Assembly (NCBI GenBank): GCA_041498975.1
Contig: JBGQJI010000010.1
Location: 1-31,610, forward strand
Length of the DNA: 31,610 nt
Origin: Candidatus Methylomirabilis sp.
Lineage (GTDB): Bacteria > Methylomirabilota > Methylomirabilia > Methylomirabilales > Methylomirabilaceae
Reading direction: 5' to 3'
Shown here: positions 4,856 to 24,157 of the stretch, in pieces
Layout: the number at the start of each line of letters is the position of its first letter
How positions within the stretch are numbered: the first letter of the stretch is position 1
Translations under genes and position numbers: made by a program
The notes under the pieces: generated by a model
Seen by the model: only the letters and a program-made list of their open reading frames with translations
Database searches by the model: none
What the model was told of the DNA's origin: nothing

Positions 4856-4859
4856 TACG

Positions 4860-6540: not shown

Positions 6541-6638
6541 GCGCCCACCTCCATCCTAGTCTTCCAATGACCCTTTATCTGGCAGGTCCCGAGAAGCCGG
6601 CCCTCCAGAATGCCCTGGCTGCCGGAGGAATAATCGGT

Positions 6639-6675: not shown

Positions 6676-6699
6676 TAGTCGATATCAAAGGAGGGGCAC

Positions 6700-7361: not shown

Positions 7362-7420
7362 CGGCGATGCAGCAACAGGCCTAAGGGGATTCACCCGTAG
7401 TCCGGTGAACTGTAAGCCCG

Positions 7421-8188: not shown

Positions 8189-8197
8189 GTCGAGCGT

Positions 8198-8226
8198 ATT
8201 CTAGGAGATTAGCAAAAAGGTGTCAA
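8198..8226 (-). promoter_or_regulatory. Sigma70 promoter of pgeF
   Basis: Minus strand TTGACA-N17-TAGAAT, ending 10 nt before the start codon. Confidence 0.65.
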
Positions 8227-8263
8227 ACACGGCGAGTGGCGTGAGCGTGCAGAATCGCCAGGA

Positions 8264-8292
8264 TTGTCAGCCATCGGCCTGCATAGTATAAT
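8264..8292 (+). promoter_or_regulatory. Near-consensus sigma70 promoter
   Basis: TTGTCA-N17-TATAAT. Confidence 0.75.
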
Positions 8293-8298
8293 GACAGC

Positions 8299-8511
8299 GA
8301 GTGATCAGGTAGGTTAGGCGCAATCCGAAATTGACGGGCCTGCGATGTCTGGCTAGCCAGCGGGTGGCGTGGTGGGCGGGCGCCCACCCACGCCTTCGGC
8401 GCGGGTACCCGGCCCGCAGCGGAAGGGCCCCACTGGGGGATGGGTGGAGCGAGGACGACGGGGGCTGATCACCGCGACAGGACCCGCTGGCCGCGCTACT
8501 CACCCCGCTGG
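8299..8511 (+). ncRNA. Candidate structured ncRNA or cis-regulatory leader (family not recognised)
   Basis: Starts at the predicted TSS; closing helix GTGATCAG/CTGATCAC, several internal GC-rich hairpins, long-range GCCAGCGGGT/ACCCGCTGGC pairing; no credible ORF. Confidence 0.45.
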
Positions 8512-8562
8512 ATATTTTCGGATCGGGGTTAGGTCGCTCATGGGCCACAGGAAGGTCGGCGA

Positions 8563-9144
8563 ATGCTTGAAGAAAATCGATCGGCGTTGAAAGAGTGGGC
8601 GGTGGTGGCGAGGGCCCTCGGGACCGGTCGCCAGACGCTGTTGCTCAGAAAGGGGGGGATCCACGAGCGGCGGGGAGAGTTCGAGGTGGAGCACCCCGAG
8701 TTCTTCATCTTCCCGACCTATCTCCATCAGAATCCACAGGACCTCCTTCCCGAGTTCGACGAAGAGCTCGCCTGGAGCGAGGCAGCCCGACCGGACGCTG
8801 GCTTGGTCTCGATCGACTATTACGCCTTGGTGAAAGAGGTGTTCCACGTGAGCGACCTGGGGCTGCTGAAGCCGCTCGAAAGGGAGCACATCCTATCGTG
8901 GTCCGCCGTAGAGCAGCGGTTTTTCTACAAAGGCCGTCCCGGTCTCCACGTCGTAGTTGTCAGAGTATACAAGCTCCCGCAGACCCTCACCATCCTCAAC
9001 ACGCGGCTCTACGATGGCTGTGTCTCCTGGGTCGAGCTCGATCGGCCGCTTCCTACAGCCGGCAGTCAGCCGGTCTTGCCGGAGATTGAGTTCGGTCATC
9101 GGCTGGAGGCGATTCGCCACGTCCTGACCCCGGTCACCGCGTGA
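8563..9144 (+). CDS. DUF1802 family protein
   Basis: ALKEWAVV..AL..GRQTLLLRKGGIHE, FPTYLHQ, YDGCVSWVEL. Confidence 0.88.
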   Translation: MLEENRSALKEWAVVARALGTGRQTLLLRKGGIHERRGEFEVEHPEFFIFPTYLHQNPQDLLPEFDEELAWSEAARPDAGLVSIDYYALVKEVFHVSDLGLLKPLEREHILSWSAVEQRFFYKGRPGLHVVVVRVYKLPQTLTILNTRLYDGCVSWVELDRPLPTAGSQPVLPEIEFGHRLEAIRHVLTPVTA

Positions 9145-9151
9145 CGGTCGC

Positions 9152-9547
9152 ATGCCGATGAAGCAGGCCCTCCTCATCGTCGATCACGGCAGTCGCCGCG
9201 AGGAATCGAACGATCTCCTCCGCGATATCGCGGGGATGATGCAGGAGCGCTTTGGCTTTAGCATCGTGCATTACGCCCATATGGAGCTGGGCAACCCGAC
9301 CATCGAGCAAGGGTTCGATGCCTGCGTCGCCGATGGGGCTGAGGAGGTCATCATCCATCCCTATTTCCTCGGGCCGGGGCGCCATGTTACCAGCGACATC
9401 CCGGACCTCGTCAAGCAGGCGGCCGACCGCCACCCAGGAATCGCCTTCCGGATCACAGAGCCGCTGGGCGTCCATCCGAAGATCGGAGAGGTGATCCTGG
9501 AACGGATTGCCCAGTCAGAGGTCACCGCTCGCAAGTCTGCCAAATGA
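9152..9547 (+). CDS. Small CbiX/SirB-type class II chelatase domain protein
   Basis: IVDHGSRR, AHMEL..PTI, HPYFLGPGRHVTSDIP, EPLGVHP. Confidence 0.88.
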   Translation: MPMKQALLIVDHGSRREESNDLLRDIAGMMQERFGFSIVHYAHMELGNPTIEQGFDACVADGAEEVIIHPYFLGPGRHVTSDIPDLVKQAADRHPGIAFRITEPLGVHPKIGEVILERIAQSEVTARKSAK

Positions 9548-10716
9548 TCAAGCGTGACCGCCTGAAGGCCCTGTTGCTGGACCTCATCCGGATCGACAGC
9601 GTCTCCCGGAGAGAGCGCTTGATCGCGCTCCGCCTGAAGCAGGAGCTGGAGTCCATAGGTGCCGAGGTCCGGATCGACGATGCCGGCGAGAAGGTTGGCG
9701 GCAACGTCGGCAACCTGATCGCCCGGCTCCCTGGGACGGCCGCGGCGGCGGCGCCCTTTCTCCTTTCCGCCCATATGGACACCGTGGTCCCCGGAGAGGG
9801 AGTTCAGCCGGTGATTGAAGGGGAGATCATCAGGAGCGATGGCACAACAGTCCTGGGCGGGGACGACAAGTCCGGCCTGGCGATCATCTGTGAGGTTGTC
9901 AGGAGTCTTGTCGAGCATAAGATCCCACGCGGTGATTTGGAGGTGGTCTTCACCATCTGTGAAGAGGTCGGGCTGCTGGGCGCCAAACACCTGGACACCG
10001 CACAACTGAAGGCACGCCGAGGGTTGGTCCTGGATAGCGAGGATGTGGGCTGTCTGTTCACGCGGGCGCCCGCCGCCGATCGAATGGAATTCCGAATCCA
10101 CGGTCTCGAGGCCCACGCCGGCGTCTGCCCGGAGCAAGGGATCAGCGCCATCCGCGTCGCAAGCCAAGCGATCGCAGGGATGCGGCTCGGTCGGATCGAT
10201 CACGAAACCACGGCCAACGTCGGGCTCATCCAGGGAGGCCTCGCCACGAACATCGTCCCTCCGATGGTCCTGGTCAAGGCCGAAGCGCGAAGCCACGATG
10301 AGGGCAAGCTCAGGGCCCAGACCGAACATATGCGGCGGTGTTTCGAAGAGGCCGCAGCGGCCGCTCAGGTTAAGCTGAACGGGGTCCTGCACATCGCCCG
10401 GGTGGAGGCGCAGGTCCAGCGAGACTACCCGAGGATGGTGGTATCAGACAGCGCTCCCATCGTCCGGCTGGTGGCGGAGGCGGCGAACGCCCTCGGATAT
10501 CAGGTCAAGACCATGGCCACTGGCGGCGGCTGTGATGCCAATATCTTCAACGGCAGCGGGATCGAATCGGCCAACCTCGGCACGGGCATGCAGGCGATCC
10601 ACACCCTTAAAGAGTCGCTGAACGTCCAGGAGCTGTGCAAGGCTGCGGAGATCGTGTTCGAGGCCGTTCGTCTGAACGCTGCACGGAAGGCGAGCTATAG
10701 CGAACGCATCAAATAG
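9544..10716 (+). CDS. M20B family metallopeptidase (peptidase T-like)
   Basis: SAHMDTV, LGGDDKSG, CEEVGLLG, AHAG, GGGCDAN, GTGMQAIHT; ATGA overlap with the cbiX-like gene. Confidence 0.9.
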   Translation: MIKRDRLKALLLDLIRIDSVSRRERLIALRLKQELESIGAEVRIDDAGEKVGGNVGNLIARLPGTAAAAAPFLLSAHMDTVVPGEGVQPVIEGEIIRSDGTTVLGGDDKSGLAIICEVVRSLVEHKIPRGDLEVVFTICEEVGLLGAKHLDTAQLKARRGLVLDSEDVGCLFTRAPAADRMEFRIHGLEAHAGVCPEQGISAIRVASQAIAGMRLGRIDHETTANVGLIQGGLATNIVPPMVLVKAEARSHDEGKLRAQTEHMRRCFEEAAAAAQVKLNGVLHIARVEAQVQRDYPRMVVSDSAPIVRLVAEAANALGYQVKTMATGGGCDANIFNGSGIESANLGTGMQAIHTLKESLNVQELCKAAEIVFEAVRLNAARKASYSERIK

Positions 10717-10725
10717 TGTTACTTT

Positions 10726-10832
10726 TGTCATTGCGAGCGACCAATGGGACTGTGGCAATGTCGCCTTTCTGGCTTAGGTCACAGCGAGATTGCTTCGTCC
10801 CCTTCGACTTGCTCAGGGTCCTCGCAATGACA
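10726..10832. repeat. Palindromic element, GTCATTGCGAG...CTCGCAATGAC family (complete copy without heptamer cargo)
   Basis: 12-bp terminal inverted repeats TGTCATTGCGAG / CTCGCAATGACA; internal GCAAT/ATTGC pairing. Confidence 0.8.
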
Positions 10833-10857
10833 TTTCCATTCTCTCGTTTGGATTAGC

Positions 10858-11403
10858 ATGGCCAAGGAAGGCACACACGATCACGGCCACCTTCACGCCC
10901 CCGACGCACCTTTCCGATATTGCCCGAGGTGTGGGGAGGGACTAAAACCAAGGCGAATGAAACCGGATGGGCCGGAGCTTCGGGCCTGTCCAAGCTGCTC
11001 ATTCGTCCATTACCATGACCCGAAGGTCGCCACCGGCACCCTGTTTACGCTCGATGGCGGTATCGTCCTCGTCCAGCGGGCGATCCCGCCCTCGTACGGC
11101 AAGTGGGTGTTTCCCGGCGGCTTCGTCGATAGAGGCGAGCGGTTGGAGGCCGCTGCGATCCGCGAGACCCGGGAAGAGGTCAACCTGGACGTCAGGATCG
11201 ACCGGCTCCTGAACGTCTATTCCTATGAGGATTCAGCAGTGGTGATCGTCGCGTATGCCGCCCATGTGGTGGGCGGGGAGCTTCAGGCGAAGGACGAAGC
11301 CCTCGATGTGAAGGTGTTCCATCCGGCACAGATTCCCTGGGAAGAGCTGGCGTTCCGCAGCACGCAGGACGCGATACGAGAATACATAGCCCATTACTTT
11401 TGA
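10858..11403 (+). CDS. NUDIX hydrolase with N-terminal zinc ribbon
   Basis: CPRCG...CPSC; Nudix box GGFVDRGERLEAAAIRETREEVNL. Confidence 0.92.
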   Translation: MAKEGTHDHGHLHAPDAPFRYCPRCGEGLKPRRMKPDGPELRACPSCSFVHYHDPKVATGTLFTLDGGIVLVQRAIPPSYGKWVFPGGFVDRGERLEAAAIRETREEVNLDVRIDRLLNVYSYEDSAVVIVAYAAHVVGGELQAKDEALDVKVFHPAQIPWEELAFRSTQDAIREYIAHYF

Positions 11404-11453
11404 CACGGAAGCCCCCTATGCACCTCGGCAGCATAATTCGCGAACCGACTTGA

Positions 11454-11519
11454 CCCCCTCGCCCGCACCCTCTCGCTCAAGGGAGAGGGTCCAGCCCTGA
11501 TCCCCCTCGCCCCCGGGGG
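11454..11519. repeat. REP-like palindromic element, second copy
   Basis: CCCCTCGCCCGCACCCTCTCGCTCAAGGGAGAGGG resembles 4767-4808. Confidence 0.6.
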
Positions 11520-11572
11520 TGTATAGACTGGGGACACAGGCAGTGAGGCCAGGGAAGAGAGGAGACGTGGCG

Positions 11573-12301
11573 ATGGCGGAGCAGGTGGAAAAAAACGATG
11601 ACACGCTGGCGACTTCGACGGTGCACTACACGAGCGGCGACATCCAGATGGCTGCCTACCTGGCCCGGCCGAAAGCCAAGGGGATGTACCCCGGCCTGAT
11701 TGTGATCCAGGAATGGTGGGGGCTGAACGAGCACATCAAGGATATTGCGCGGCGCTTCGCGCGCGAGGGGTACCTCGCGTTGGCGCCCGACCTTTACTCC
11801 TGCCTCGGTCACAAGGTCACGGCCGACCCGAACGAGGCCGGCCGGTTGATGAGCTCGTTGAAGCCAGAACAAGCCCTCAAGGACCTTCAGGCCACCCTTG
11901 CGTACCTCAAGACTATCGAAGGCGTCGCACCCGAACGGCTGGGCATCATCGGGTTCTGCATGGGCGGGACCTATGCCCTGCTCCTGCCTTGCCACACGCG
12001 GGAGATCAAGGCGGCAGCGCCCTTCTACGGCCAGGTCCCATCGCCGGCCGACCCGGTCAGGAACCTGGCCTGCCCAATCCTCTACATCTACGGCGACGCG
12101 GACGGCTGGATCACCATGGCCGACGTCAATCGACTCCAGGAGGGGATGAAGCGGTACGGAAAGGCCGGAGAGGTGAAGATCTATTCCGGAGCGCCCCATG
12201 CCTTCTTCAACAACACCAGGAAAGACGTCTATCGCCCGGCCGACGCGAAGGACGCCTGGACCCACGTACTGAAGTTTTTCGCGGGTCACCTGAAAAGTTA
12301 G
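11573..12301 (+). CDS. Dienelactone hydrolase family protein
   Basis: IQEWWGLN, ALAPDLY, GFCMGG nucleophile, GDAD, APHAF; start moved to ATG 11573 after SD GAGGAG. Confidence 0.92.
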   Translation: MAEQVEKNDDTLATSTVHYTSGDIQMAAYLARPKAKGMYPGLIVIQEWWGLNEHIKDIARRFAREGYLALAPDLYSCLGHKVTADPNEAGRLMSSLKPEQALKDLQATLAYLKTIEGVAPERLGIIGFCMGGTYALLLPCHTREIKAAAPFYGQVPSPADPVRNLACPILYIYGDADGWITMADVNRLQEGMKRYGKAGEVKIYSGAPHAFFNNTRKDVYRPADAKDAWTHVLKFFAGHLKS

Positions 12302-12335
12302 GCGATCGTTTCGCAGATAGTGCACAAAGAAGGCT

Positions 12336-12495
12336 GTCATTGCGAGCGACTGCGCTTCGCAGTTCCAGGTTCCGGGTTCCAGGTTCTGCGTTACTTAAAA
12401 CTTGGAATTCGGCACTTGGAACCTCGAACCTTGTTGAGATTGCGGAGCCTGCCCTGAGGATACCCGAAGGGGTCGCGACGCTCCCTCGCAATGAC
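12336..12495. repeat. Composite palindromic element: GTCATTGCGAG shell with nested heptamer hairpin
   Basis: Terminal IRs GTCATTGCGAG/CTCGCAATGAC; inner GTTCCAG-like repeats followed by GGAACCT-like repeats. Confidence 0.8.
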
Positions 12496-12559
12496 GCCGG
12501 GGGACTTTCGGAGCAATGATAAGAGACGCGGACTTTCTTAACCGCCGAAAGAAGTAGGA

Positions 12560-13423
12560 ATGGCTTCACTGCGTGACACCGGCAAAGATTATTACGCCAT
12601 CCTCGGCGTCCAGGAGGCCGCCACAGAGGAGGAGTTGAAGAAGGCCTATCGACGCCTGGCGCTGCAGTACCACCCCGACAGGAACCCCGGCGATCGCAAG
12701 GCCGAGGAACGGTTTAAGGCAATCAGCGAGGCCTATGCCGTCCTGATGGACCACCAGAAGCGGCGGCAGTACGATTCTTTTCGTCGGGCGCAGGCGACGT
12801 CGGGGCGGGCGACGGGCGGCTTTAGCTACTCTCAGGAAGAGATCTTCCGCGATCTCTTCACCAATCCCGATCTGTCGTCGATCTTTCAGGAAATGAACAA
12901 GGAATTCTCAAGGGCCGGCATCCGTTTCGACGACACCTTTGTTCGCCAGATCTTCCTCGGGGGCCGCGGGTTCGTCTTCGGCGGCGTCTTCATCGGCGCG
13001 CCGATCGGCGTGCTCTGGCGGCGCATGTCCCGTATGGCGGCTGACCGGGGGCCGGGCAGGTCACAGGTCGAAGAGGCGAAAGGTCCTCAATCGCCGGACG
13101 AGGGCAAGCATGGGGGACTACTCTCCACCATCGGCCGTGGGATAAAGGAGGGCTTCAACCTGCTGAAACAGATGGTCTCAGGAGCCGTCACCCCCGAGCG
13201 TGGCGGGCTCAATGTCCGGTATCATCTGACCATCACCCCGCAGGAAGCCGCCTCAGGCGCGCGGAGGCGGGTCGCCTTCATGAGGGGGGATCAGCTCGAG
13301 GAGCTGATCGTCACGATCCCCCCCGAGATCCGATCGGGGACGCGGCTTCGGCTGAAAGGGAAAGGGCTCGAGGGTGCGGGCGGCGCTCGCGGCGATCTCT
13401 ACCTGCGGGTGACAGTCGCGTAA
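12560..13423 (+). CDS. DnaJ/CbpA-like J-domain protein
   Basis: [25 protein letters not shown]; partial C-terminal domain LRLKGKG...GDLYL; no zinc finger. Confidence 0.9.
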
Positions 13424-13489
13424 AGCAGAGAATGCATACCCCCGCACTCTATGAAATGTTACGACGAGCGAATCAGCGGCTTTGCCCGT

Positions 13490-13626
13490 GTCATTGCGAG
13501 GAGCGGAGCGACGAGGCAACCTCAAAGATTTGTAGAGCGCTGATCTCGGAATCTGGAATGAAGAAGAGAAATGTGGGGGGAACGCTTGCGCTGCCTGAAG
13601 AGGGCGCGGCAAGCAGCGCCCCTACA
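13490..13626. repeat. Repeat mosaic: left half of the GTCATTGCGAG element plus a REP-like AGGGCGC..GCGCCCCTACA unit
   Basis: GTCATTGCGAGGAGCGGAGCGACGAGGCAACCTC at 13490; GGGCGCGGCAAGCAGCGCCCCTACA ending at 13626. Confidence 0.6.
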
Positions 13627-13831
13627 AATCCGCAACCTGACTGCGTCACGTCACGTAGGGCCTCCGCAACCGACGCTTTTTCAGCCAGCGGGCGATTTCG
13701 CTTGACACCAGGGAGAAAGATGGGCTACCTAACATTCAGCCTCTTGATGGGGCCTTAGGGGAAAGGCAGGGCCATGTGGCCCGCAAGGGACAAACGAATA
13801 GGTTGGAGTCGGTCGTTTCATCGTCGGATGG

Positions 13832-13875
13832 AAAGGCCCTTCGGGGAGTGATGATAGCCGGAGGGCTTTTGTTTT
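13832..13875 (+). terminator. Intrinsic terminator/attenuator in the leader of the MEDS kinase
   Basis: Stem AAAGGCCCTTCGG / CCGGAGGGCTTTT, 13-nt loop, then TTTTGTTTT; downstream of a TTGACA at 13702. Confidence 0.6.
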
Positions 13876-13923: not shown

Positions 13924-16900
13924 ATGCAGGGTGAGCTAGAGAGGCAGATCGCACTCCTGCGGCCGGGCGACCATCTCTGCCTGATTTACGAAGACGCGCC
14001 GGAGCAGATGAAGGCCATCGTGCCCTTTGTAGAGGCAGGTCTCCGCCGCGGTGAGTGTTGCGTCTACATCGCTGACGATGACACCACTGCTGGAATGGCC
14101 ACCGCACTCGCGGCCTCAGGGGTCGACGTCCCTCGTGAGCTTGAGCGGGGCGCGCTGGTTTTTCTCACCGAACGGGACACGTACCAGCGTGGCGGGGCAT
14201 TCGATCCGGAGGCGATGATCGAGCTCCTTCGCGAGACGCTGGAGCGGGCGCTCGCGAAGGGCTCTGCCGGCCTCAGGGTAACCGGCGAGATGAAATGGGC
14301 GCTTGGGCCGGACGTGGGCTGCGAACGGCTGATCGAGTACGAGGCCAGGCTTAACATGTTTCTACCCGGCACTCGAACGCTCGCCATCTGCCGATACCCC
14401 CGACTTCCGTTCCCGCCGACCGTCCTACGGGATGTCCTGCACACCCATCCCGTAGCCATTCTAGGCGACCAGGTGTGCCGGAATCCGTACTATCGATCGC
14501 CAGACTTGGTCATCGCCCAGGCGTCCGAAGCGGAACGGCTGGACTGGATGATCGCCAACATGAAGCGGGCGCACGCGGCAGAGGAAGCATTACGGCAGAG
14601 CGAAGAGCGTTATCGTTACTTGGTGGAAAACGGCCGAGGGCTCATCTGTACCCACAACCTCGCCGGCACGCTGTTGTCGGTTAACCCAGCCGCAGCCGCT
14701 CTGCTGGGCTACCAGCCGGCTGAACTCGTCGGGAGGAACCTTCTCGAGTTTCTCGCGCCGTCTGTTCGGGGCCTTCTCGGCGATTACCTCGATCGTATTC
14801 GGCGGCAGCCGGCCGACAGCGGCCTCCTGCGGGTCGTGACGAAAGTGGGGGAAGAACGAATCTGGATGTACCGGAACGCTCGGATTGAGGAGCCAGGAAA
14901 AGCGCCTTACGTGCTGGGCCATGCGCAGGATATTACTGAGCTCGAGCGAAAGAATATGGGTCGTCTTGAAGCGGCGCTGTCGCTGCTCAGTGCCACGCTG
15001 GAGTCCACCGCCGACGGCATCCTCGTAGTGGATCAGGCGGGCAAGATCGTGAGCTTTAACCGCAAGTTCGCGGACATGTGGCGTATCCCCGAGACCGTCC
15101 TCGCCGCGCACGACGACTCACGGGCGCTGGACCTTGTCCTCGATCAGCTCGAGGATCCGGAAGGATTTCTCAGGAGGGTGCGCCAACTCTACGACCAACC
15201 GGAGCTCGCGAGCTTTGACGTCCTGAGATTCAAGGATGGGAGAATCTTCGAGCGCTATTCGCAGCCGCAGCGAGTCGGCCCCCGATGCGCGGGAAGAGTA
15301 TGGAGCTTCCGTGACGTCACCGAGCGGAAGCAGCTCGAGGACGCGCTGCGACAGAGCGAACAGGAATTGAACGACTTCTTTGAAAATGCTGTGGTGGGTC
15401 TGCACTGGGTGGGGCCGGATGGGTACATTCTTCGCGCGAATCAGGCAGAGCTGAAATTGTTGGGATACACGCGGGAGGAGTACGTCGGTCACCACATTTC
15501 CGAGTTTCATGCCGATCGAAAAGTGGCTGATGATATCCTCGAACGCTTGACGAGGAACGAGACGTTGCGAAACCATGAAGCCCTCCTTCGGCACAAAGAT
15601 GGTTCCATCAAGCATGTCCTCATCGATTCGAATGTGTTCCGGCGGGATGGCAGATTCGTTCACTCGCGCTGTATCACCCGCGATATCACCGAGCGCATGC
15701 AGGTGGAGGCGGCGCTGCGGAAGAGTGAAGAACGGTATCGGACGCTGTACGAAGACAATCCAACCATGTACTTCACGATGAGTCCAGAGGGCAGAATCCT
15801 ATCCGTCAACCAGTTTGGGGCCGCCCAACTGGGGTACACGTGTGAGGAACTGGTCGGGAGATCGGTCCTTGACGTGATTCACAGTGATGACAGGATCGCG
15901 GCCTGGGACCACCTGAAAGCGTGTGTGGAGCGCCCCGGGCAGGTCGGCCACTGGGAATTCCGGAAGATCCGAAAAGACGGGACCGTGGTGTGGGTGAAAG
16001 AGGTGGCTCACACCGTGAAGAGGACTGACGGGAACCCCATTGTCCTCATTGTCTGCGAAGACGTCACGCAGCTCAAGGAGGCGCAGGCGGCACTCTCCCA
16101 GGTGGCGGCCATTGTGGAGTCTTCCGACGATGCGATCATCGGCAAGACACTGGAAGGCCTCATTATCAGTTGGAATTCCGGCGCGGAGAGGATTTTTGGC
16201 TACCCCCTTGAGGAGGTCAAGGGCCGGCATATCTCCATCCTCGCGCCCCCGGACCGCCGGGACGAAGGGATACGGATCCTTGAAAGAATCAAGCGCGGAG
16301 AGCGCGTTGATCATCATGAAACTGTGCGTGTCAGAAGGGATGGCCGTCAAATTCACGTCTCGCTAACAATCTCCCCGATCAAGGATACGGCTGGCAGGAT
16401 TACAGGCGCCTCGGCTATCACTCGAGACATCACCGAACGCAAGCGGGCGGAGGCGACCCGGCAAGCTCTCTACCAGGCAAGTCTCCAGATCCAGGAACCG
16501 CTGGAGCTTGAGAAGCGGCTCAGTCGCCTCCTTCAGACAGCGAAGACGGTGTTGGAGCTGGATCGCGTCAACATCCTGCTCGCCGATCCGGCGGAACAGT
16601 GGCTGCAGGCAGTGGCCGCCCTGGGGAGTGAGGAGCCTCTTGAGAAAATACGGGTCCGGATTGGGCCGGAGGGGGGCGCTATCGCAGAGGCATACCGCAC
16701 CCAGCAGATGATCGCCTGGGATGGCCGGGCGCCGGTTCCTGCGGGGCTGCGGCTGCATTCGCCCTATGACCAGATTGAGGCCCTCCGCTCCCAGGTCTTC
16801 GCGAACGTGCCACTGATGGTTCGGGGTCGGGCAATCGGGGTCCTGGGGGCCGATCGGAAGCACAGCCGGCGGCCGCTCGATGCGGCCACCTTGGAGCTGC

Positions 16901-17673
16901 TACAGCTCTTTGCCGCGCAGGCCGCCCTCGCCATCGAGCAGGCGCGACTGTTCGAGCAGGTACTGGCCGGGCGCGAGCGTTTGCAGGCCCTCTCCCATCG
17001 GTTAGTGTCGGTGCAGGAAGCCGAGCGCCGCCAGCTCGCCCGCGAACTGCATGACGAGATCGGCCAGATACTGACCGGGATCAAACTCACCCTGGAGATG
17101 AGCGCGCGCCTTCCGGCCGATGCCGTCAAAACCACCATTGGCGAAGCACAACTGCTGGTCAATGAGCTTATGGGGCGAGTTCGCGAGCTGGCGCTCGATC
17201 TGCGGCCCGCGATGCTGGATGATCTTGGTCTTCAATCCACGTTGCTGTGGCACTTCGAGCGGTTCACTGGTCAGACGCACGTGCGAGTGGCCTTCTCACA
17301 TTCCAGATTGGAGGAACGCGCGCCGCCGGAGGTCGAAACGGCCGCCTACCGCATCGTACAAGAAGCGCTAACGAATGTCGCCCGCCACGCCGGCGTGACA
17401 GCGGTGACGGTCCGCGCCTGGGCCGACTCCGACCGGCTGGCCGTGCAGATCGAAGATCGAGGCTGCGGCTTCGACCTCCCGGCCGCCCTGGCCACGCACA
17501 CCACCAGCGGCTTGGCCGGGATGCGGGAGCGGGCCACCTTGTTGGGCGGGAGGTTGACGGTGGAGTCGGCCCCAGGTGAAGGAACCCTTGTGACAGCCGA
17601 ATTCCCTCTGGCGCGTCCAAACTTGGAGCGAAGAGGCAGAGATGGCCGCAACGACAATCGTGCTGGCGGATGA
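13924..17673 (+). CDS. Cytoplasmic sensor histidine kinase: MEDS - 5 PAS - GAF - HisKA_3 - HATPase
   Basis: MEDS motifs (GDHLCLIYE, LRVTGEM.WAL, IEYEARLN, DVLHTHP); repeated PAS/PAC ends (DITE); ERRQLARELHDEIGQ H-box, QEALTNVARHA, GLAGMRER. Confidence 0.92.
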   Translation: MQGELERQIALLRPGDHLCLIYEDAPEQMKAIVPFVEAGLRRGECCVYIADDDTTAGMATALAASGVDVPRELERGALVFLTERDTYQRGGAFDPEAMIELLRETLERALAKGSAGLRVTGEMKWALGPDVGCERLIEYEARLNMFLPGTRTLAICRYPRLPFPPTVLRDVLHTHPVAILGDQVCRNPYYRSPDLVIAQASEAERLDWMIANMKRAHAAEEALRQSEERYRYLVENGRGLICTHNLAGTLLSVNPAAAALLGYQPAELVGRNLLEFLAPSVRGLLGDYLDRIRRQPADSGLLRVVTKVGEERIWMYRNARIEEPGKAPYVLGHAQDITELERKNMGRLEAALSLLSATLESTADGILVVDQAGKIVSFNRKFADMWRIPETVLAAHDDSRALDLVLDQLEDPEGFLRRVRQLYDQPELASFDVLRFKDGRIFERYSQPQRVGPRCAGRVWSFRDVTERKQLEDALRQSEQELNDFFENAVVGLHWVGPDGYILRANQAELKLLGYTREEYVGHHISEFHADRKVADDILERLTRNETLRNHEALLRHKDGSIKHVLIDSNVFRRDGRFVHSRCITRDITERMQVEAALRKSEERYRTLYEDNPTMYFTMSPEGRILSVNQFGAAQLGYTCEELVGRSVLDVIHSDDRIAAWDHLKACVERPGQVGHWEFRKIRKDGTVVWVKEVAHTVKRTDGNPIVLIVCEDVTQLKEAQAALSQVAAIVESSDDAIIGKTLEGLIISWNSGAERIFGYPLEEVKGRHISILAPPDRRDEGIRILERIKRGERVDHHETVRVRRDGRQIHVSLTISPIKDTAGRITGASAITRDITERKRAEATRQALYQASLQIQEPLELEKRLSRLLQTAKTVLELDRVNILLADPAEQWLQAVAALGSEEPLEKIRVRIGPEGGAIAEAYRTQQMIAWDGRAPVPAGLRLHSPYDQIEALRSQVFANVPLMVRGRAIGVLGADRKHSRRPLDAATLELLQLFAAQAALAIEQARLFEQVLAGRERLQALSHRLVSVQEAERRQLARELHDEIGQILTGIKLTLEMSARLPADAVKTTIGEAQLLVNELMGRVRELALDLRPAMLDDLGLQSTLLWHFERFTGQTHVRVAFSHSRLEERAPPEVETAAYRIVQEALTNVARHAGVTAVTVRAWADSDRLAVQIEDRGCGFDLPAALATHTTSGLAGMRERATLLGGRLTVESAPGEGTLVTAEFPLARPNLERRGRDGRNDNRAGG

Positions 17674-18298
17674 CCACCAGGTCGTCCGACAGGGTCTGCG
17701 GGCCCTCCTGGAAACCGAGCCGGACTTTCGACTTATCGGGGAGGCGGGCGATGGTCTGGAGGCGGCTGAACTGATCGAACGTCTACAGCCCGACGTGTTG
17801 GTGCTCGACCTGATGATGTCTGGCTTGAGCGGCCTGGAGGTCACGCGGCTGGCGCGCAAGTGCTCACCCCGAACCCATGTCCTGATCCTCTCGATGCACG
17901 CCGATGAAGCCTATGTGCTGGAGGCTCTGAAAAATGGCGCAGCAGGCTACGTTCTTAAGGATTCCAGCGCAGCCGACCTGGTGCAGGCGGTGCGCGAGGT
18001 GACCGCCGGCCGACGTTACCTCAGCCCGCCGCTTTCAGAGCGCGCCATCGAGCAATATGCACAGAAGGCAGAAGCCGCAGCTCGGGATAGCTATGAAACG
18101 CTGACGACACGCGAGCGGGGAGTGTTGCACCTGGCGGCCGAGGGCAAAACGAACCCCGAGATTGCAGGTCGGCTCGGAATCAGCCCCCGCACGGCTGAGA
18201 CGCATCGGGCCAACCTCATGCGCAAGCTGGGGCTGCACACTCAGACCGACCTGGTCCGCTACGCCATCCGGCGGGGAATCCTCCCCCTGAACGACTGA
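17642..18298 (+). CDS. NarL/FixJ (LuxR-type HTH) response regulator
   Basis: LADDH, VLDLMM, GYVLK, LTTRE...ISPRTAETHRANLMRKLGL; overlaps the kinase 3' end. Confidence 0.95.
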   Translation: MAATTIVLADDHQVVRQGLRALLETEPDFRLIGEAGDGLEAAELIERLQPDVLVLDLMMSGLSGLEVTRLARKCSPRTHVLILSMHADEAYVLEALKNGAAGYVLKDSSAADLVQAVREVTAGRRYLSPPLSERAIEQYAQKAEAAARDSYETLTTRERGVLHLAAEGKTNPEIAGRLGISPRTAETHRANLMRKLGLHTQTDLVRYAIRRGILPLND

Positions 18299-18392
18299 CC
18301 TTTTCCGATCGCCCGGGGTGAGGGCAACCAGCCCCTTGACATTGTGCCCACATAATGGAATAATGACGCTACATTGGAGTGGTGGGGGAGTG

Positions 18393-18621
18393 GCGTCATT
18401 GCGAGCTTTGCAGTCTCGGGTTCGGCTTCGCAGTTCAATGTTCCACGTTCCGCGTTCCAGGCTAAGAGCAGGCCCTACCACACCTTCAACTTGGGTCATG
18501 TAACCTGGAACCTGGCACATGGAACCTGGAACTTTACCAGGCACTTGGAACCTCGAACCTTGTTGAGATTGCGCAGCTTGCCCCGAGCAGCGGCGAGGGG
18601 TCTCGCTCCTCGCAATGACGC
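18393..18621. repeat. Composite palindromic element (larger copy) with nested heptamer hairpins
   Basis: 13-bp IRs GCGTCATTGCGAG / CTCGCAATGACGC; shares GGCACTTGGAACCTCGAACCTTGTTGAGATTGCG exactly with the 12.4 kb copy. Confidence 0.8.
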
Positions 18622-18668
18622 GAGTGAGGGGGACTTTCGAAGCCATAGTAGTTCACTAGGAGAAGAGA

Positions 18669-18938
18669 ATGGTTGCCGTGGGTATCCGGGAGTTAAGAAA
18701 CCGCCTCAGTCAGTATCTCAAGCGAGTGGGAGCCGGGGAACGCGTGGTGGTGACGCACCGAGGTCAGCCGGTCGCCGTCATCTCGCCCCCGCCTATCACT
18801 CCCGCGGACGGGCGAATCGAGGCCATGCTCCGTGACGGTGTGGCGCGGTGGGGAGGAGGCAGACCGCGAGGAGCCATCCGCCCGCCCCGGGTCAAGGGGC
18901 CTTCGGTGGCCCAAGCGGTCATCGAAGATCGACGATGA
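18669..18938 (+). CDS. vapB: Phd/YefM-type antitoxin
   Basis: VGIRELRNRLSQYLKRV..GERVVVTHRGQPVAVI; ATGA overlap with the toxin gene. Confidence 0.9.
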   Translation: MVAVGIRELRNRLSQYLKRVGAGERVVVTHRGQPVAVISPPPITPADGRIEAMLRDGVARWGGGRPRGAIRPPRVKGPSVAQAVIEDRR

Positions 18939-19387
18939 GGCTTTACCTTGATACCAGCGCCCTCGTCAAGCTCTATGTGGACGAAGAGGGATCGCCCCTT
19001 GTCCGAAGCGCGGTCGATCAAGCCAGTCTGATTGCGACTTCGGCGGTCGCCTATGTCGAGGCCCGAGCGGCCTTCGTCAGGCGCCGCCATGAGGGAGGGC
19101 TTCCAGCCAGAGATTACCGAAGGATCATTCGTGATCTCGATGCGGACTGGGCCCGTTACCTGGTAGTGGGTATCACGGACTCGCTCATTCGAGAGGGGGC
19201 CCGTCTCGCGGAGGCTCATCAGCTAAGGGCCTACGATGCGATCCATTTGGGCTGTGCAACAGCCATCCATGGCCGGCTCGCCGAGCCCGTCGTCTTTGCC
19301 TCCTGGGACCTCGTGCTGGAAAAGGCCGCAAAGGATGAAGGGCTTGAGCCATTGCGGTTCCGGAAGCACCCGCCGCGTAATAGCTGA
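18935..19387 (+). CDS. vapC: PIN-domain toxin (VapC)
   Basis: Start moved to ATG 18935: MRLYLDTSALVKLY, YVEA, LRAYDAIHL, FASWD. Confidence 0.9.
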   Translation: MRLYLDTSALVKLYVDEEGSPLVRSAVDQASLIATSAVAYVEARAAFVRRRHEGGLPARDYRRIIRDLDADWARYLVVGITDSLIREGARLAEAHQLRAYDAIHLGCATAIHGRLAEPVVFASWDLVLEKAAKDEGLEPLRFRKHPPRNS

Positions 19388-19522
19388 GGTTATCTCTTAC
19401 CCCCCCCCTGACCCACGGCTCCCCTCCGGCGTTTCCCCTTCCTCCTTTTGACCCCCAAACCGTCCAGTACCCCTTCCCGGCCGGTCCGCCCCGCAAGAAA
19501 TACGGGGTTTCCCTCCTCGAAT

Positions 19523-19567
19523 TCCGTAGGTGTACGGATAGACACGCCCGGCCAAGCCATCTATTCT
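19523..19567 (+). promoter_or_regulatory. Candidate activator site plus promoter
   Basis: Palindrome TCCGTA-N4-TACGGA abutting TAGACA-N17-TATTCT. Confidence 0.45.
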
Positions 19568-19633
19568 CACTCTGCATCTATTTATGCTCCTGGAGTCACT
19601 CTTGTAGCCGAGCGAGGAGGGCCGACAGGAATC

Positions 19634-20107
19634 ATGAACCCCATCTCCGTGCTGCTGGTGGACGACAATTCCACCTTTCTGCAGATCCTTGCACGGTTCT
19701 TGCGAACGCAGTACCAGGACGAGGTCGTCGTCGTCGGTACAGCTGCCGGCGGCAAAGAGGCCCTGAGGACATCACAGGATCTGCAACCGCAAGTGATTCT
19801 GCTCGACCTGGCCATGCCCGATGTGCCGGGCCTGGACGTCATCCCCGTTCTGCGGACCAGGATGCCTGATGTCATCATCATCGCCCTGACCCTCTGGGAC
19901 ACCGACGCCTATCGCGAGGCGGCCCGCGCCGCGGGGGCAGATGCGTTCGTCTCAAAGGCCAGCTTGAGCACCGACCTGCTGCCGGCCATCCGACGCCTGG
20001 TACAGGCTACTCGCCCGCACGGGTCTTGCGGACCAGCGTCCCCTGGCGACACACCCGTGAATCACTTCCCGACCAAGTTGGGCGGCGCAGGATGGGTGGT
20101 CCCGTGA
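19634..20107 (+). CDS. Single-domain response regulator (NarL-type receiver without HTH)
   Basis: SD GAGGAGG upstream; VLLVDDN, LLDLAMP, ALT, AFVSK. Confidence 0.88.
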   Translation: MNPISVLLVDDNSTFLQILARFLRTQYQDEVVVVGTAAGGKEALRTSQDLQPQVILLDLAMPDVPGLDVIPVLRTRMPDVIIIALTLWDTDAYREAARAAGADAFVSKASLSTDLLPAIRRLVQATRPHGSCGPASPGDTPVNHFPTKLGGAGWVVP

Positions 20108-20216
20108 ATACCACGACACGACTGGGGGGCGGGGACCTGAGCCCGGGCCACGGGCTGGGAGGCAGGAGCCAAGCGGCTCCTGCCGTCGCGATGTAAGAGA
20201 CGGAGAGCCGTACTCA

Positions 20217-23200
20217 ATGCTACACCTTCTGCAGAGCGTCATCGGCTCGCAAGGATTCGAGCCGCACGGCTACTGCTTCCTGTGGACGCGACCGCTGTTG
20301 TGGCTCTACGTCATCTCGGATTCGCTGATTACCCTCTCGTACTATTCCATCCCGATCGCCCTCGTCTACTTCGTGCGCAAGAGGCGAGACCTAGCTTTCA
20401 ACTGGATGTTCCTCATGTTCGCGGCGTTCATCATTGCGTGCGGGACGACTCACCTCATGGCGTTGTGGACGATCTGGAATCCCGTGTATTGGCTCGATGG
20501 AGCCGTCAAGGCAATCACGGCAATTGCGTCAGTCATAACAGCGGTGGCGCTCTGGCTGCTCATGCCTAAGGCTCTTGCATTGCCCAGTCCAGCCCAACTG
20601 GAAGCAGCCAATTCGGCGCTTCAAGGGGAGATCATCGAACGGAACCAGGCGCAGGAGGCGTTGCGCAGAGCGCACGAGGAGTTAGAGATACGGGTCCACG
20701 AACGGACCAAGGAGTTGACAAGAATCACCGAAGCATTACAGGCTGAGATCGCCGAGCGCAAGCAAGTGGAGGAGCGACTGGGGCTGCAAGGCGCCGCGCT
20801 TGAAGCCGCCGCGAACGCCATCGTCATGACCGACCGAGAAGGGCAGATAGTTTGGGTCAACCCGGCCTTCACTCGCCTCACCGGCTACACAGCCGAGGAG
20901 GCCTTTGGCCACAACCCTCGCCTCCTCAAATCAGGCAATCATGACCTATCATTCTATGAGAATCTCTGGAACACGATTCTTTCCGGGGAGGTCTGGCACG
21001 GGGAGATCATCAACCGGCGAAAAGATGGGACTCTGTATCACGAGGAGCAGACCATCACCCCCGTTCGCGACGAGCGAGGCGATATTACTCACTTCATCGC
21101 CATCAAACAGGACATCACCGAGCGCAAGCAGAAGGAGAGTGAGCTTCGCAGGACGCATCGAGCGCTTAGGACCCTCAGTGACTGCAATGAGGCACTGGTG
21201 CGCGCGTCCGACGAATCAGACTTGCTGAGGAACATCTGTCAGGTGATTGTGAGGTCCGGCGGATACCATCTGGCTTGGGTGGGCTTCGCGAAGCACGATG
21301 AAGAGAAAACCGTGCGCCCGGTGGCGCACATGGGATACGATAAGGGCTACCTCGAATCGGTGAAAATCACATGGGATGATACTGAACGGGGCCGTGGTCC
21401 CACCGGAACGGCCATCCGGACAGGCAAGCCCTGCGTTGCGAGAAATATCCAGAAGGATCCCGCCTTTGCCCCCTGGCGCGCCGAAGCGATCAAGCGAGGC
21501 TATGCCTCGTCCATTGCCCTTCCCCTGCGGACCAATGGACAGCCGTTCGGAGCGCTGGTGATCCACGCCGAGGAGCCGGATGCGTTCGACTCGGACGAAG
21601 TGGAGCTGCTGGCCGAGATGGCCAGCGACCTCGAGTACGGCATCGCGATGCTTCGCACACGCGCCGAACATGCGCGGGCGGAGGAGGCCCTGCGAGAGAG
21701 CAAGGAGCGCTATCGGGACCTGGTCGAAAATGCAAACGACATCATCTACACCTACGATCTGACGGGCAACTTCACCTCTCTCAACAGGGCCGGCGAAATA
21801 GTCACCGGCTACACCCGGTACGAGGCCCCCGCGATGAATCTGGCCCAGGTGGTCGCCCCGGAATACCTCGACCTCTCCCGCCAGATGCTGTCCCGCAAGC
21901 TCAGGGAAGGCGGGCCGACGACCTACGATCTCGGGATCATCACGAAGGACGGCCGCCGCGTCCTGCTGGAGGTCAGCAACCGGCTGATCTATAAAGAGGG
22001 GAGGCCTGTCGGCGTCCAAGGCATCGCCCGCGACATTACCGACCGAAAGCGAGCGGAACAGGAGATCGAGCGTCTCGCGAAGTTTCCCGCTGAAAATCCA
22101 AGTCCCATCTTACGCATCAATAGCGAAGGCCTGATGCTGTATGCAAATCAGGCAAGCGAGCCGCTCTTGCGAGGGTGGGGGTGGGAGGTTGGGCGCGACG
22201 TACCCCACGCTTGGCGTGACCTGATAACTGAGGCACTCACAAAACAGGAGAAAAGGATCATCGAGGCAGAGTGTGCGGAGCGCGTTTACGAATTCGTTCT
22301 GGCCTCGGTGCCGGATGGCGGCTATGTCAATCTCTATGGAAGGGACATCACCGAGCGGAAGCAGACAGAGGCAACCCGGCGGGCCCTCTACCGGGCGAGC
22401 CTTCATGTCCAGGAACCGCTGACGCTCCAGGAGCGGCTCGACCGGCTTCTGCAGACCGCCCGAGATGTGATAGGGCTTGATCGGCTCAGCATCTTCCTCG
22501 CAGACCCGACAAAGCAGTGGCTGCAAGTGGTGGCCAGTACCAAGCCCGAGGAGGTTGCGCAGGCAGTGTCCATTCCGATCGGGCCCGCCGGTGGCGGCTT
22601 GGCCCAGGCCTACCGCACCCAGCAGATGGTCGTCTGGGATGGCCGCGGGCCGGTGCCCGAGCCGCTCCGCCTGAAGCCCCCCTATGACCAGATCAAGAGC
22701 CTGCGGTCTCGCATCTTCGCCATCTTGCCCCTGGTGGCCCAAGGCCGGACGATTGGCGTGCTGGGATCGCACCAGGCACAGACCCGAAAGCCCTTCGAAC
22801 CCGCCACGCTGGAGCTCCTCCAGCTCTTCGCCGCCCAAGCCGCCCTCGCGATCGAGCAGGCGCGGCTCTATGAGGCGGAGCGCTTGGCCGCCATTCAACT
22901 CGAAGCCACGGTTGAAGCCCGGACCCGAGAGCTCCAGGAGGCCACTCGCCAGGCCGAGGAAGCCTCCCGCCACAAGTCGGAGTTCCTGGCCAACATGTCC
23001 CATGAGCTCCGGACCCCGCTCAACTCGATCCTTGGCTTCTCGGAGCTCTTACAGCAGCACGCGTATGGCCCCCTTAGCGCCAAGCAGGCCCGCTACGTGG
23101 ACCACATCCATCAGAGCGGCGAGCACCTCCTGGCGCTGATCAACGACCTCCTCGACCTCTCGAAGGTGGAGGCGGGGAAGATCGAACTGGAGCCGGAGCC

Positions 23201-23732
23201 CTTCAACCTGCCAGCGGCCTTAGCAGCCGCAGCGACCAAGATCCGCCCCCAGGCCAAGGCGAAGGGGCTGCGGCTCTCGCTTCAGGCGGACGACGCTCCT
23301 TCGACCCTCACCGCAGATCCGCTCCGGTTCAAGCAGATCCTCTACAATCTCCTCTCCAATGCGGTGAAATTCACCCCCGATGGAGGGCGGATTATGGTCA
23401 CCGCCAGGCGCGTGCGGAGTGCGGAGTGCGGAGTGCGGAGTGAGACAGATAGCACCTCGCACCTTGCACCTTGCACCTCGGACGCCGCTGATTTCGTTGA
23501 AATCGGCGTGTCCGACACGGGGATCGGGATTTCGGGCGAGGACTTGCCCAAGCTCTTCCAGGCGTTCACCCAACTGGAGTCCCCGTTCGTAAAGCGACAC
23601 CAGGGGACGGGGCTCGGCCTTGCCCTGACGAAGCAGCTCGTCGAACTGCACGGAGGGACGATCTGGGCCGAGTCCCAGGGCGAGGGCCTGGGAAGCGCCT
23701 TCACGATCCGCCTCCCCTTGGCCCCAGGCTAG
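20217..23732 (+). CDS. Membrane sensor histidine kinase: ETR1-like ethylene-binding domain - PAS - GAF - PAS - PAS - GAF - HisKA - HATPase
   Basis: Three TM helices with ISDSLITLSYYSIP and FIIACGTTH; H-box FLANMSHELRTPLN; NLLSNAVKF, DTGIG, GTGLGL. Confidence 0.92.
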   Translation: MLHLLQSVIGSQGFEPHGYCFLWTRPLLWLYVISDSLITLSYYSIPIALVYFVRKRRDLAFNWMFLMFAAFIIACGTTHLMALWTIWNPVYWLDGAVKAITAIASVITAVALWLLMPKALALPSPAQLEAANSALQGEIIERNQAQEALRRAHEELEIRVHERTKELTRITEALQAEIAERKQVEERLGLQGAALEAAANAIVMTDREGQIVWVNPAFTRLTGYTAEEAFGHNPRLLKSGNHDLSFYENLWNTILSGEVWHGEIINRRKDGTLYHEEQTITPVRDERGDITHFIAIKQDITERKQKESELRRTHRALRTLSDCNEALVRASDESDLLRNICQVIVRSGGYHLAWVGFAKHDEEKTVRPVAHMGYDKGYLESVKITWDDTERGRGPTGTAIRTGKPCVARNIQKDPAFAPWRAEAIKRGYASSIALPLRTNGQPFGALVIHAEEPDAFDSDEVELLAEMASDLEYGIAMLRTRAEHARAEEALRESKERYRDLVENANDIIYTYDLTGNFTSLNRAGEIVTGYTRYEAPAMNLAQVVAPEYLDLSRQMLSRKLREGGPTTYDLGIITKDGRRVLLEVSNRLIYKEGRPVGVQGIARDITDRKRAEQEIERLAKFPAENPSPILRINSEGLMLYANQASEPLLRGWGWEVGRDVPHAWRDLITEALTKQEKRIIEAECAERVYEFVLASVPDGGYVNLYGRDITERKQTEATRRALYRASLHVQEPLTLQERLDRLLQTARDVIGLDRLSIFLADPTKQWLQVVASTKPEEVAQAVSIPIGPAGGGLAQAYRTQQMVVWDGRGPVPEPLRLKPPYDQIKSLRSRIFAILPLVAQGRTIGVLGSHQAQTRKPFEPATLELLQLFAAQAALAIEQARLYEAERLAAIQLEATVEARTRELQEATRQAEEASRHKSEFLANMSHELRTPLNSILGFSELLQQHAYGPLSAKQARYVDHIHQSGEHLLALINDLLDLSKVEAGKIELEPEPFNLPAALAAAATKIRPQAKAKGLRLSLQADDAPSTLTADPLRFKQILYNLLSNAVKFTPDGGRIMVTARRVRSAECGVRSETDSTSHLAPCTSDAADFVEIGVSDTGIGISGEDLPKLFQAFTQLESPFVKRHQGTGLGLALTKQLVELHGGTIWAESQGEGLGSAFTIRLPLAPG
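23412..23479. repeat. Heptamer inverted-repeat hairpin inserted in-frame in the kinase ATPase domain
   Basis: (GTGCGGA)x4, spacer, (GCACCTY)x4; translated as VRSAECGVRSETDSTSHLAPCTS. Confidence 0.8.
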
Positions 23733-23752
23733 TCCTGCAACCCGAGGGACCG

Positions 23753-24157
23753 ATGGCGCGCGGCACGGTCTTGGTGGTGGAGGATCACCCGGTGAACCGA
23801 GAGCTGGTCGTGGATGTCCTCGAGGCGGCGGGGTACACGATTCTTCAGGCGGAAGATGGCAGCGGCCTGCTGGAGCGGGTGAAGGCCACGCGACCCGATC
23901 TCATCATCCTGGACCTCCAACTCCCTGGTGTGGACGGCTTCACGCTGGCCCGGTTGCTCACGGCCGAGCCCGTGACCCAAGGCATCCCGATCCTCGCGAT
24001 CAGCGCGTATGCTGCGCCCCAGGAACAGGCCCAGGCGAAAACAGCCGGCTGCGCAGCCTTCCTGGCCAAGCCCCTTGACACCCGAGGACTTGTCAAGACC
24101 GTCGCCCGTCTCGCCGGGCTGCAAGGGCGGGTGGCGCTGAGGCCGGTATCCAGATGA
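23753..24157 (+). CDS. Single-domain response regulator (DivK/CheY-like)
   Basis: VLVVEDH, IILDLQLP, ISA, FLAKP. Confidence 0.92.
   Translation: MARGTVLVVEDHPVNRELVVDVLEAAGYTILQAEDGSGLLERVKATRPDLIILDLQLPGVDGFTLARLLTAEPVTQGIPILAISAYAAPQEQAQAKTAGCAAFLAKPLDTRGLVKTVARLAGLQGRVALRPVSR

Follow-up and report, generated by a model that had tools for sequence, protein, structure and literature searches.

The DNA analysed here is the whole of contig JBGQJI010000010.1 (assembly GCA_041498975.1) from Candidatus Methylomirabilis sp., 31,610 nucleotides (nt) read on the forward strand (positions 1-31,610) and called the window below. Between positions 13924 and 24157 it encodes two large sensor kinases and three receiver-containing proteins, all on the + strand. 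The first kinase (P0002, 1249 amino acids (aa), 13924-17673) consists of a MEDS (iKaiC) domain, five PAS domains, a GAF module that we term GAF-X and a HisKA_3-HATPase_c transmitter, and its gene is followed by that of a NarL/LuxR-type response regulator with a receiver domain (REC; Response_reg) and a GerE helix-turn-helix (HTH) domain (17642-18298). The second kinase (P0001, 1171 aa, 20217-23732) starts with an ETR1_N domain and continues through PAS, GAF, PAS, PAS-like and GAF-X modules to a HisKA-HATPase_c transmitter. It is flanked by a stand-alone receiver of 157 aa without an output domain (19634-20107) and by a single-domain receiver of 134 aa (23753-24157). A preliminary description had named these five genes, and Pfam recovers all of them at the same coordinates, together with the domain calls, order and common orientation that it gave for the MEDS-5PAS-GAF-HisKA_3 kinase, the NarL regulator, the stand-alone receiver and the ETR1-type HisKA kinase. 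The last gene it called DivK-like; the protein is indeed a receiver, but its likeness to DivK is only generic (NCBIfam DVU0259_DivK, 59.8 bits against a cutoff of 160).

The genes fall into two groups that differ in phosphotransfer family. In cassette 1 (13924-18298) a HisKA_3 kinase is combined with a NarL-type regulator, whereas in cassette 2 (19634-24157) a HisKA kinase is accompanied by receiver-only proteins. Read in translation, both kinases have intact H-box and ATP-binding motifs, and none of the three receivers has lost its acidic pocket, acceptor Asp, Thr/Ser or Lys. The two genes of cassette 1 overlap by 32 nt, and the later intergenic gaps are, in order, 370 nt (from the NarL regulator to an antitoxin gene), 246 nt (from the toxin gene to the first stand-alone receiver), 109 nt (from that receiver to the ETR1_N kinase) and 20 nt (from the kinase to the last receiver). 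The G+C content is even over the island, with 0.62-0.67 in the genes against 0.61 in the window, and the island shows no sign of a foreign origin.

The MEDS domain (residues 16-176; 13969-14451, + strand) matches Pfam PF14417 over the full profile (positions 1-161 of 161) with 158.3 bits against a cutoff of 29.8 (E = 1.9e-46). The family, which includes DcmR, was reportedly defined by Anantharaman and Aravind in 2005. No 19-residue stretch of the kinase reaches a Kyte-Doolittle value of 1.6, and since it has no hydrophobic segment the protein is predicted to be cytoplasmic. An AlphaFold (AF2) model of the MEDS domain built from 59 sequences has a predicted local distance difference test score (pLDDT) of 93.9; in Foldseek the closest solved folds are FlaH (4yds, E = 5.8e-7) and the CI domain of KaiC, with TM-scores of ~0.6, and a sequence search of the PDB with the MEDS part gave no match. 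No Walker A motif is present in the domain, and passages of PMC5847659 label MEDS as 'iKaiC'. As modeled, the MEDS domain is an inactivated KaiC/RecA-like fold without a P-loop.

R118, E140 and H175 are invariant among the 59 MEDS sequences. The core that the window domain has in common with EtnR2 of Mycolicibacterium chubuense NBB4 is larger and comprises H17, C19, C46, R118, E122, W125, E140, C156 and H175. Its His/Cys members (H17, C19, C46, C156 and H175) are invariant when the MEDS domains of the window, of EtnR2 and of two proteins from Nocardioides JS614 are compared (window 13969-14451; comparison locus L081, 6956-7552). These residues could bind a metal or could be attacked by electrophiles, for example epoxides. 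When plasmids were searched with tblastn, the MEDS domain was 32.4% identical to EtnR2 (MYCCH_RS29050) over 90% of its length, 35.6% to a Nocardioides JS614 homologue and 29% to a protein from Xanthobacter Py2, and the top matches were haloarchaeal proteins with 38-43% identity that lack a hydrocarbon context. Because the haloarchaeal proteins match better, the similarity to EtnR2 is only at the family level; judged by these sequences, it places the window domain in the family and assigns no ligand. A further match of the domain, in NCBIfam, is to the RsbA family of anti-sigma regulators. The sensing of hydrocarbon derivatives by MEDS is a contextual prediction.

EtnR2 shares the His/Cys/Arg/Glu core with the window domain, and passages of 10.1101/2024.02.19.581074 describe it as a MEDS-only protein that works with a CdaR/PucR-type DNA-binding partner, EtnR1, in an alkene catabolic cluster. 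The MEDS kinase differs in that its MEDS domain is fused to a PAS-GAF-HisKA_3 kinase, and neither such a partner nor catabolic genes are present in the window. DcmR belongs to the same profile family, but acts as a repressor of the one-component type and carries an HTH domain according to passages of the same source (10.1101/2024.02.19.581074), whereas the window holds no dichloromethane or one-carbon (C1) genes. Also comparable are the cytoplasmic MEDS-PAS/GAF kinases of archaea, such as MA2082 of Methanosarcina acetivorans, and of bacteria, as described in excerpts of the literature. Most relatives among the MEDS kinases use HisKA, whereas the window kinase uses HisKA_3 with a NarL partner; none of the MEDS-bearing kinases compared has a known ligand. 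We found 93 relatives with an N-terminal MEDS head, and NCBI holds a near copy of the window kinase from a second assembly (P0122) that differs at 2 of 1249 residues.

The HisKA_3-HATPase_c kinase adjoins a REC-GerE regulator, which identifies cassette 1 as a NarL-type two-component system. Like the NarX/NarL class, it combines a HisKA_3 transmitter and a REC-GerE regulator encoded by overlapping genes, but its NCBIfam equivalog scores are all below cutoff, including those for MctR and NarL, the best matches of the regulator, and its input is MEDS/PAS/GAF instead of a periplasmic nitrate sensor. In the mechanism that we propose for cassette 1, the inactivated-KaiC-type MEDS head, the five PAS domains and the GAF domain of a soluble kinase would control the HisKA_3 transmitter. 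This transmitter would pass phosphate to the translationally coupled NarL-type regulator, and the output would be transcriptional.

The ETR1_N domain of the second kinase (residues 27-122; 20295-20582, + strand) matches PF25487 at positions 2-97 of 97 with 139.4 bits against a cutoff of 27 (E = 4.6e-41), and a sequence search of the PDB with this part gave no match. Hydrophobic segments above the Kyte-Doolittle threshold of 1.6 lie within residues 58-86 and 93-124 (helices II and III), whereas helix I (~26-52) peaks at 1.47. In an alignment with 14 relatives, D35, Y42, I45, C75, H79 and K98 are invariant and P46 is found in at least 90%, while I72 is not among the conserved positions. Of 8916 ETR1_N cluster representatives, the 150 nearest retain each of these eight residues in 147-150 cases (D35 in 147, C75 in 150, H79 in 150 and K98 in 149). 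These residues are presumed to be numbered 10 higher than in ETR1, or 7 higher for the lysine. In ETR1, Cu(I) is held by Cys65 and His69, which lie one helical turn apart in helix II, and the binding of copper and of ethylene requires Asp25 of helix I, to which Lys91 of helix III couples (passages of PMC10266040). A proteobacterial homologue, AzoEtr1, was assayed as residues 1-130 with a radioligand and binds ethylene, and it signals as a kinase (passages of PMC11819568). Since the residues of the copper/ethylene site are kept and bacterial homologues bind ethylene, ethylene is the likeliest ligand, and the kinase is a plausible bacterial receptor for ethylene, comparable to SynEtr1 and AzoEtr1.

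The comparison with SynEtr1 from Synechocystis and AzoEtr1 from Azospirillum brasilense extends beyond the ligand site. According to passages of PMC10266040 and PMC11819568, these proteins too begin with an ethylene-binding-type domain that has the copper/ethylene residues and is built of three helices, as predicted for the window kinase; PAS-type domains and a histidine kinase come next, and phosphotransfer goes to a receiver protein encoded nearby. The window kinase differs in size (1171 aa against 525 aa for AzoEtr1), in having two PAS domains plus a PAS-like one and two GAF domains including GAF-X, and in being flanked by two receiver-only proteins. Its NC10 host is neither a cyanobacterium nor a plant associate, and its ethylene binding is predicted only. 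The closest relatives are NC10 kinases of 740-749 aa with the order ETR1_N-PAS-GAF-X-HisKA, which are 64-66% identical over ~40% of the query; relative to them, the window kinase has an additional GAF-PAS-PAS-like block inserted. ETR1_N heads are thus found on several NC10 architectures, namely the kinases of 740-749 aa, hybrids of 942 aa and the 1171-aa protein described here. The family as a whole is large, with 6792 cluster representatives at E <= 1e-10.

The HATPase_c domain of the ETR1_N kinase carries a Ser/Cys/Asp-rich insertion at residues ~1072-1110 (~23430-23550). The same insertion motif is present in a relative, P0008, whose C terminus looks frameshifted. Outside NC10, a metagenome-assembled genome (MAG) of Methylovulum, a gammaproteobacterial methanotroph, encodes an ETR1_N-PAS-GAF-PAS-GGDEF-EAL protein (positions 9974-13834 of comparison locus L079), indicating that an ethylene-binding-type head is also wired to cyclic di-GMP turnover in another methane oxidiser.

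The upstream receiver of cassette 2 sits in an open reading frame (ORF) spanning 19448-20107, but the domain begins only at residue 68 of this frame, and the ATG at 19634, which gives a protein of 157 aa, is likely the true start. Its best NCBIfam matches are the MctR and NarL receivers, and it is 31.5% identical to the receiver of the NarL regulator. The downstream receiver gives only generic matches (PleD, PhoB, EpsW and DivK types), all below cutoff. The 109-nt gap in front of the kinase gene contains a perfect 10-bp hairpin with a 4-nt loop, read directly in the sequence (20161-20184, + strand) and not followed by a T-run. We propose that in cassette 2 the putatively three-helix ETR1_N domain of a membrane kinase, which keeps the Cu(I)/ethylene-site residues, would most likely bind ethylene and signal through the PAS and GAF domains to the HisKA transmitter. 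The transmitter would then phosphorylate one or both of the flanking receiver-only proteins, which would act by protein contacts or as a phosphate sink and not by DNA binding.

The cassettes are separated by elements that were absent from the preliminary description. An 89-aa antitoxin of the Phd/YefM family (18669-18938, + strand; PF02604, E = 8e-11; TIGR01552, 41.9 bits against a cutoff of 20.8) is followed, with an ATGA overlap, by a 150-aa PIN-domain, VapC-like toxin (18935-19387, + strand; PF01850, E = 1.3e-9). By families and gene arrangement, the two are predicted to form a type II toxin-antitoxin system. Upstream of them, at 18336-18364 on the + strand, lies a sigma-70-like promoter site (TTGACA, a 17-nt spacer and TG-n-AATAAT) with an extended -10 that agrees with the consensus at 11 of 12 positions; it is the best such site of the region, where 4 are found against a mean of 2.2 in shuffles, and is a consensus match only. 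A 153-aa ORF at 18374-18835 was rejected as a gene, as it has no Pfam family and overlaps the true antitoxin gene in another frame. Elsewhere on the contig, a second PIN-domain gene (6945-7361) comes after a small ORF whose ribbon-helix-helix match is weak (E = 0.0065), and the region 6700-7361 is probably a second VapBC-type pair.

Between the promoter-like site and the antitoxin gene lies a strandless repeat element (copy B, 18390-18625). This nested palindrome of ~235 nt has perfect inverted repeats of 13 nt at its termini (GCGTCATTGCGAG, complement CTCGCAATGACGC); GTTCC and GGAACC recur inside it in heptad runs, and GGGGGACTTTCG is conserved directly behind it. Searches for the repeat gave 13 matches against 0.73 expected and 4 against 0.15 expected. 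A second copy (copy A, ~12333-12500) aligns with copy B, which has ~53 extra central bases. The RNA fold z-score of the element is -2.1, and Rfam run over the whole window, repeat element included, returned no family at gathering score. A supposed third copy at 13488 was rejected because only the 13-nt terminal motif matches. The element looks like a miniature inverted-repeat transposable element (MITE) or a repetitive extragenic palindromic (REP) sequence. With the predicted Phd/PIN pair and the repeat filling the gap, the cassettes are parted by ~1.3 kb of accessory DNA that has its own promoter-like site.

What both kinases share is the GAF-X module, delimited by sequence comparison to residues 829-1011 of the MEDS kinase (16408-16956, + strand; Pfam GAF domain at 861-1004), directly before the phospho-acceptor (DHp) helix, and to residues 708-886 of the ETR1_N kinase (22338-22874, + strand). 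The two copies are 64% identical over 178 aa, and identities within the class are 53-68%, compared with at most 33% to generic GAFs. GAF-X is found in 27 of 214 fetched proteins, 4 with ETR1_N heads, 8 with MEDS heads and 15 with other heads. One of these proteins, P0037, is a MEDS-GAF-GAF-X-HisKA kinase; compared with the ETR1_N kinase, it has 53% identity in GAF-X and 54% over 39% of that kinase. Among solved structures, a PDB sequence search found a relative of GAF-X in the GAF domain of a putative chemotaxis protein (3oov, E = 2.2e-20), and the ESM Atlas returned generic GAF clusters only, all below 0.9. By these comparisons, GAF-X forms a lineage-specific subclass of GAF domains with sharp limits, and many NC10 kinases have it directly in front of the DHp helix. 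Its presence under so many heads suggests that the lineage shuffles input heads on a common chassis, and a common cytoplasmic cue may gate many kinases of the lineage, beyond these two.

To see how often such kinases are neighbors, genomes were scanned with an alignment of ETR1_N kinases, and local profiles were then run on the resulting 80 loci with flanks of up to 10 kb. ETR1_N ORFs were present in 41 loci; the remaining 39 lack one because one of the two search patterns came from a PAS motif. No MEDS ORF was found in any of the 80 loci, the 41 with ETR1_N included, while the window, used as a positive control, was detected at 1.3e-88. Similarly, MEDS was absent from the 150 nearest ETR1_N representatives, and none of the 214 fetched proteins carries both heads. 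The co-location of MEDS and ethylene-binding-domain kinases across genomes, which the preliminary description had suggested looking for, was therefore not seen in these loci. A further kinase catalytic domain within the flanks is common in the ETR1_N loci of other genomes (30 of 41), and so is an adjacent receiver ORF on the same strand (31 of 41), with fused hybrids in another arrangement (5 of 41). One locus, L013, has the order receiver, ETR1_N kinase, receiver according to Pfam. The frequency of adjacent receivers and the pattern in L013 suggest that cassette 2 is a recurring unit by itself. The sole locus from Methylomirabilota, L001, contains neither head and has several kinase and regulator genes within ~8 kb. 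A REC-HD-GYP-type protein is part of this kinase/regulator run (1704-9500), after which comes a fusion of a T2SSE ATPase with a receiver.

The domain content, conserved residues, fold class and gene spacing described above, with no such pairing seen elsewhere, lead us to favor the view that the locus probably holds two self-contained two-component cassettes side by side in an NC10 bacterium, and not a dedicated pair. The ligands, phosphotransfer partners and transcription units of the cassettes are inferred. The profile matches of the domains greatly exceed chance; the adjacency of the kinases may not. Several observations weigh against two independent cassettes. All genes are co-oriented without a convincing terminator between them, and the terminator-like sites of the region (6) do not exceed the shuffle mean (6.7), so that read-through may occur. 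The shared, 64% identical GAF module could feed one common signal into both kinases, and the HisKA_3 kinase could use the NarL-like upstream receiver, which has no output domain, as a branch or sink. The window receivers are ~30-34% identical to those beside ETR1_N kinases elsewhere, a level that establishes the receiver-kinase-receiver pattern as analogous but does not establish orthology. All 41 comparison loci belong to other phyla, with Acidobacteriota making up most of them, and include no close relative with an ETR1_N kinase. Lastly, the same longest contig, of 58,067 bases, is listed for P0126, which among full-length relatives is the best match to the MEDS kinase, and for P0008, which is related to the ETR1_N kinase but is annotated as starting behind the ETR1_N head; this common figure is a hint of linkage in a second NC10 genome.

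The preliminary description had proposed that the two input domains form an integrated circuit. Its premise, that two domains with links to small hydrocarbons sit in one locus, stands, and the published links are to two-carbon compounds and more specific than had been stated: ethylene for ETR1_N-type domains (SynEtr1 and AzoEtr1) and ethylene oxide for MEDS (EtnR2, to which the window domain is 32.4% identical). Such a circuit might have ETR1_N sensing ethylene and the MEDS kinase sensing epoxyethane or another electrophilic co-oxidation product of a copper monooxygenase, with convergence through shared receivers or GAF-X. We consider this quite unlikely. EtnR2 with EtnR1 activates a promoter when ethylene oxide is present, detectable down to 0.2 uM, and not in response to ethylene, as reported in passages of the preprint 10.1101/2024.02.19.581074, and Methylohalobius crimeensis, a methanotroph that consumes ethylene while growing on methane, has a MEDS-HTH regulator in its epoxyethane cluster (passages of PMC11507031). 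The window MEDS domain has the invariant His/Cys/Arg/Glu core of EtnR2 as well as the similarity to it and to the JS614 plasmid homologue, but its best plasmid matches are haloarchaeal, it also matches RsbA, and the literature passages on MEDS contain no MEDS domain with a proven bound ligand, nor is there a structure of one with a ligand in place. The host belongs to NC10 (Methylomirabilota), a clade including methane oxidisers; however, KdsB of the window is only 75-77% identical to named Methylomirabilis proteins, and the genus, and hence possession of particulate methane monooxygenase (pMMO), is presumed. Although the common orientation, the shared GAF-X and the 58,067-base hint also fit a circuit, the kinases belong to different DHp families, the toxin-antitoxin pair, promoter-like site and repeat element lie between the cassettes, and the pairing is missing from the 41 other ETR1_N loci. 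C1, alkene and epoxide metabolism genes were looked for near the kinases, and Pfam and NCBIfam searches of the window proteins found none in the window, which also has no EtnR1/CdaR-type partner, monooxygenase or coenzyme M gene. The integrated circuit is thus unsupported by spacing, phosphotransfer families or comparative context, the last resting on loci outside the close NC10 relatives. Its boldest version, in which an NC10 methane oxidiser pairs a membrane ethylene sensor (ETR1_N, Cu(I)) with a cytoplasmic MEDS sensor that detects epoxyethane via its Cys/His core, both gated by GAF-X, appears very improbable. If it were true, the cell would gauge a competing substrate of its copper monooxygenase plus the toxic product. 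Such a pair of gas sensors for substrate and product would then be without precedent, and ethylene receptors would gain their first physiological role in methanotrophs.

Two other explanations were considered. The ETR1_N domain, which is defined by its Cu(I) site, might report through Cu(I) on something else, such as copper availability, redox state or another small pi-ligand, and the NC10 ETR1_N kinases would then serve copper or gas homeostasis. The spread of ETR1_N heads over several NC10 kinase architectures, the GGDEF-EAL protein of the Methylovulum MAG and a family that seems broader than plant association explains are in line with this idea. Nevertheless, every ethylene-binding residue is kept, beyond the copper ligands, both bacterial homologues assayed (SynEtr1 and AzoEtr1) bind ethylene in passages of PMC10266040 and PMC11819568, and this analysis found no evidence for a non-ethylene ligand of ETR1_N, so that we regard it as rather unlikely. 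The adjacency itself might be a recent, strain-specific rearrangement, in which insertion of the toxin-antitoxin pair and the repeat joined or split unrelated genes, with no functional meaning, the shared GAF-X input included. The second PIN module (6945-7361) and the second repeat copy do show accessory DNA scattered over the contig, and GAF-X is present in many other kinases; yet the even G+C over the island, the near-identical MEDS kinase in a second assembly and the 58,067-base hint, which speaks against a purely strain-specific arrangement, make this explanation unlikely.

If the two cassettes are independent, as we favor, the locus is an ordinary one that adds an NC10 example to the large bacterial ethylene-binding-domain family and to the MEDS kinases. 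ETR1_N kinases of several architectures exist in NC10, and full-text searching found no literature that connects ethylene receptors to Methylomirabilis, NC10 or methanotrophs. Methane monooxygenases accept ethylene as a co-substrate, and in at least one methanotroph a detoxification cluster is induced by the epoxide of ethylene, as passages of PMC11507031 report. The occurrence of one GAF-transmitter chassis under varied heads amounts to natural input-domain swapping, and it could guide sensor engineering.

The flanks of the window contain only housekeeping genes. One of them encodes KdsB (5267-6028), a housekeeping enzyme that, besides its 75-77% identity to proteins of Ca. Methylomirabilis oxyfera/NC10, is 83% identical to metagenomic proteins. 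The best named relatives of both kinases are likewise from candidate division NC10, Ca. Methylomirabilis or Methylomirabilales. Upstream of the MEDS kinase, ORFs of 287, 268 and 108 aa (11477-12560 and 13432-13758) have no Pfam or NCBIfam match and are probably not genes; one of these stretches overlaps the repeat element.

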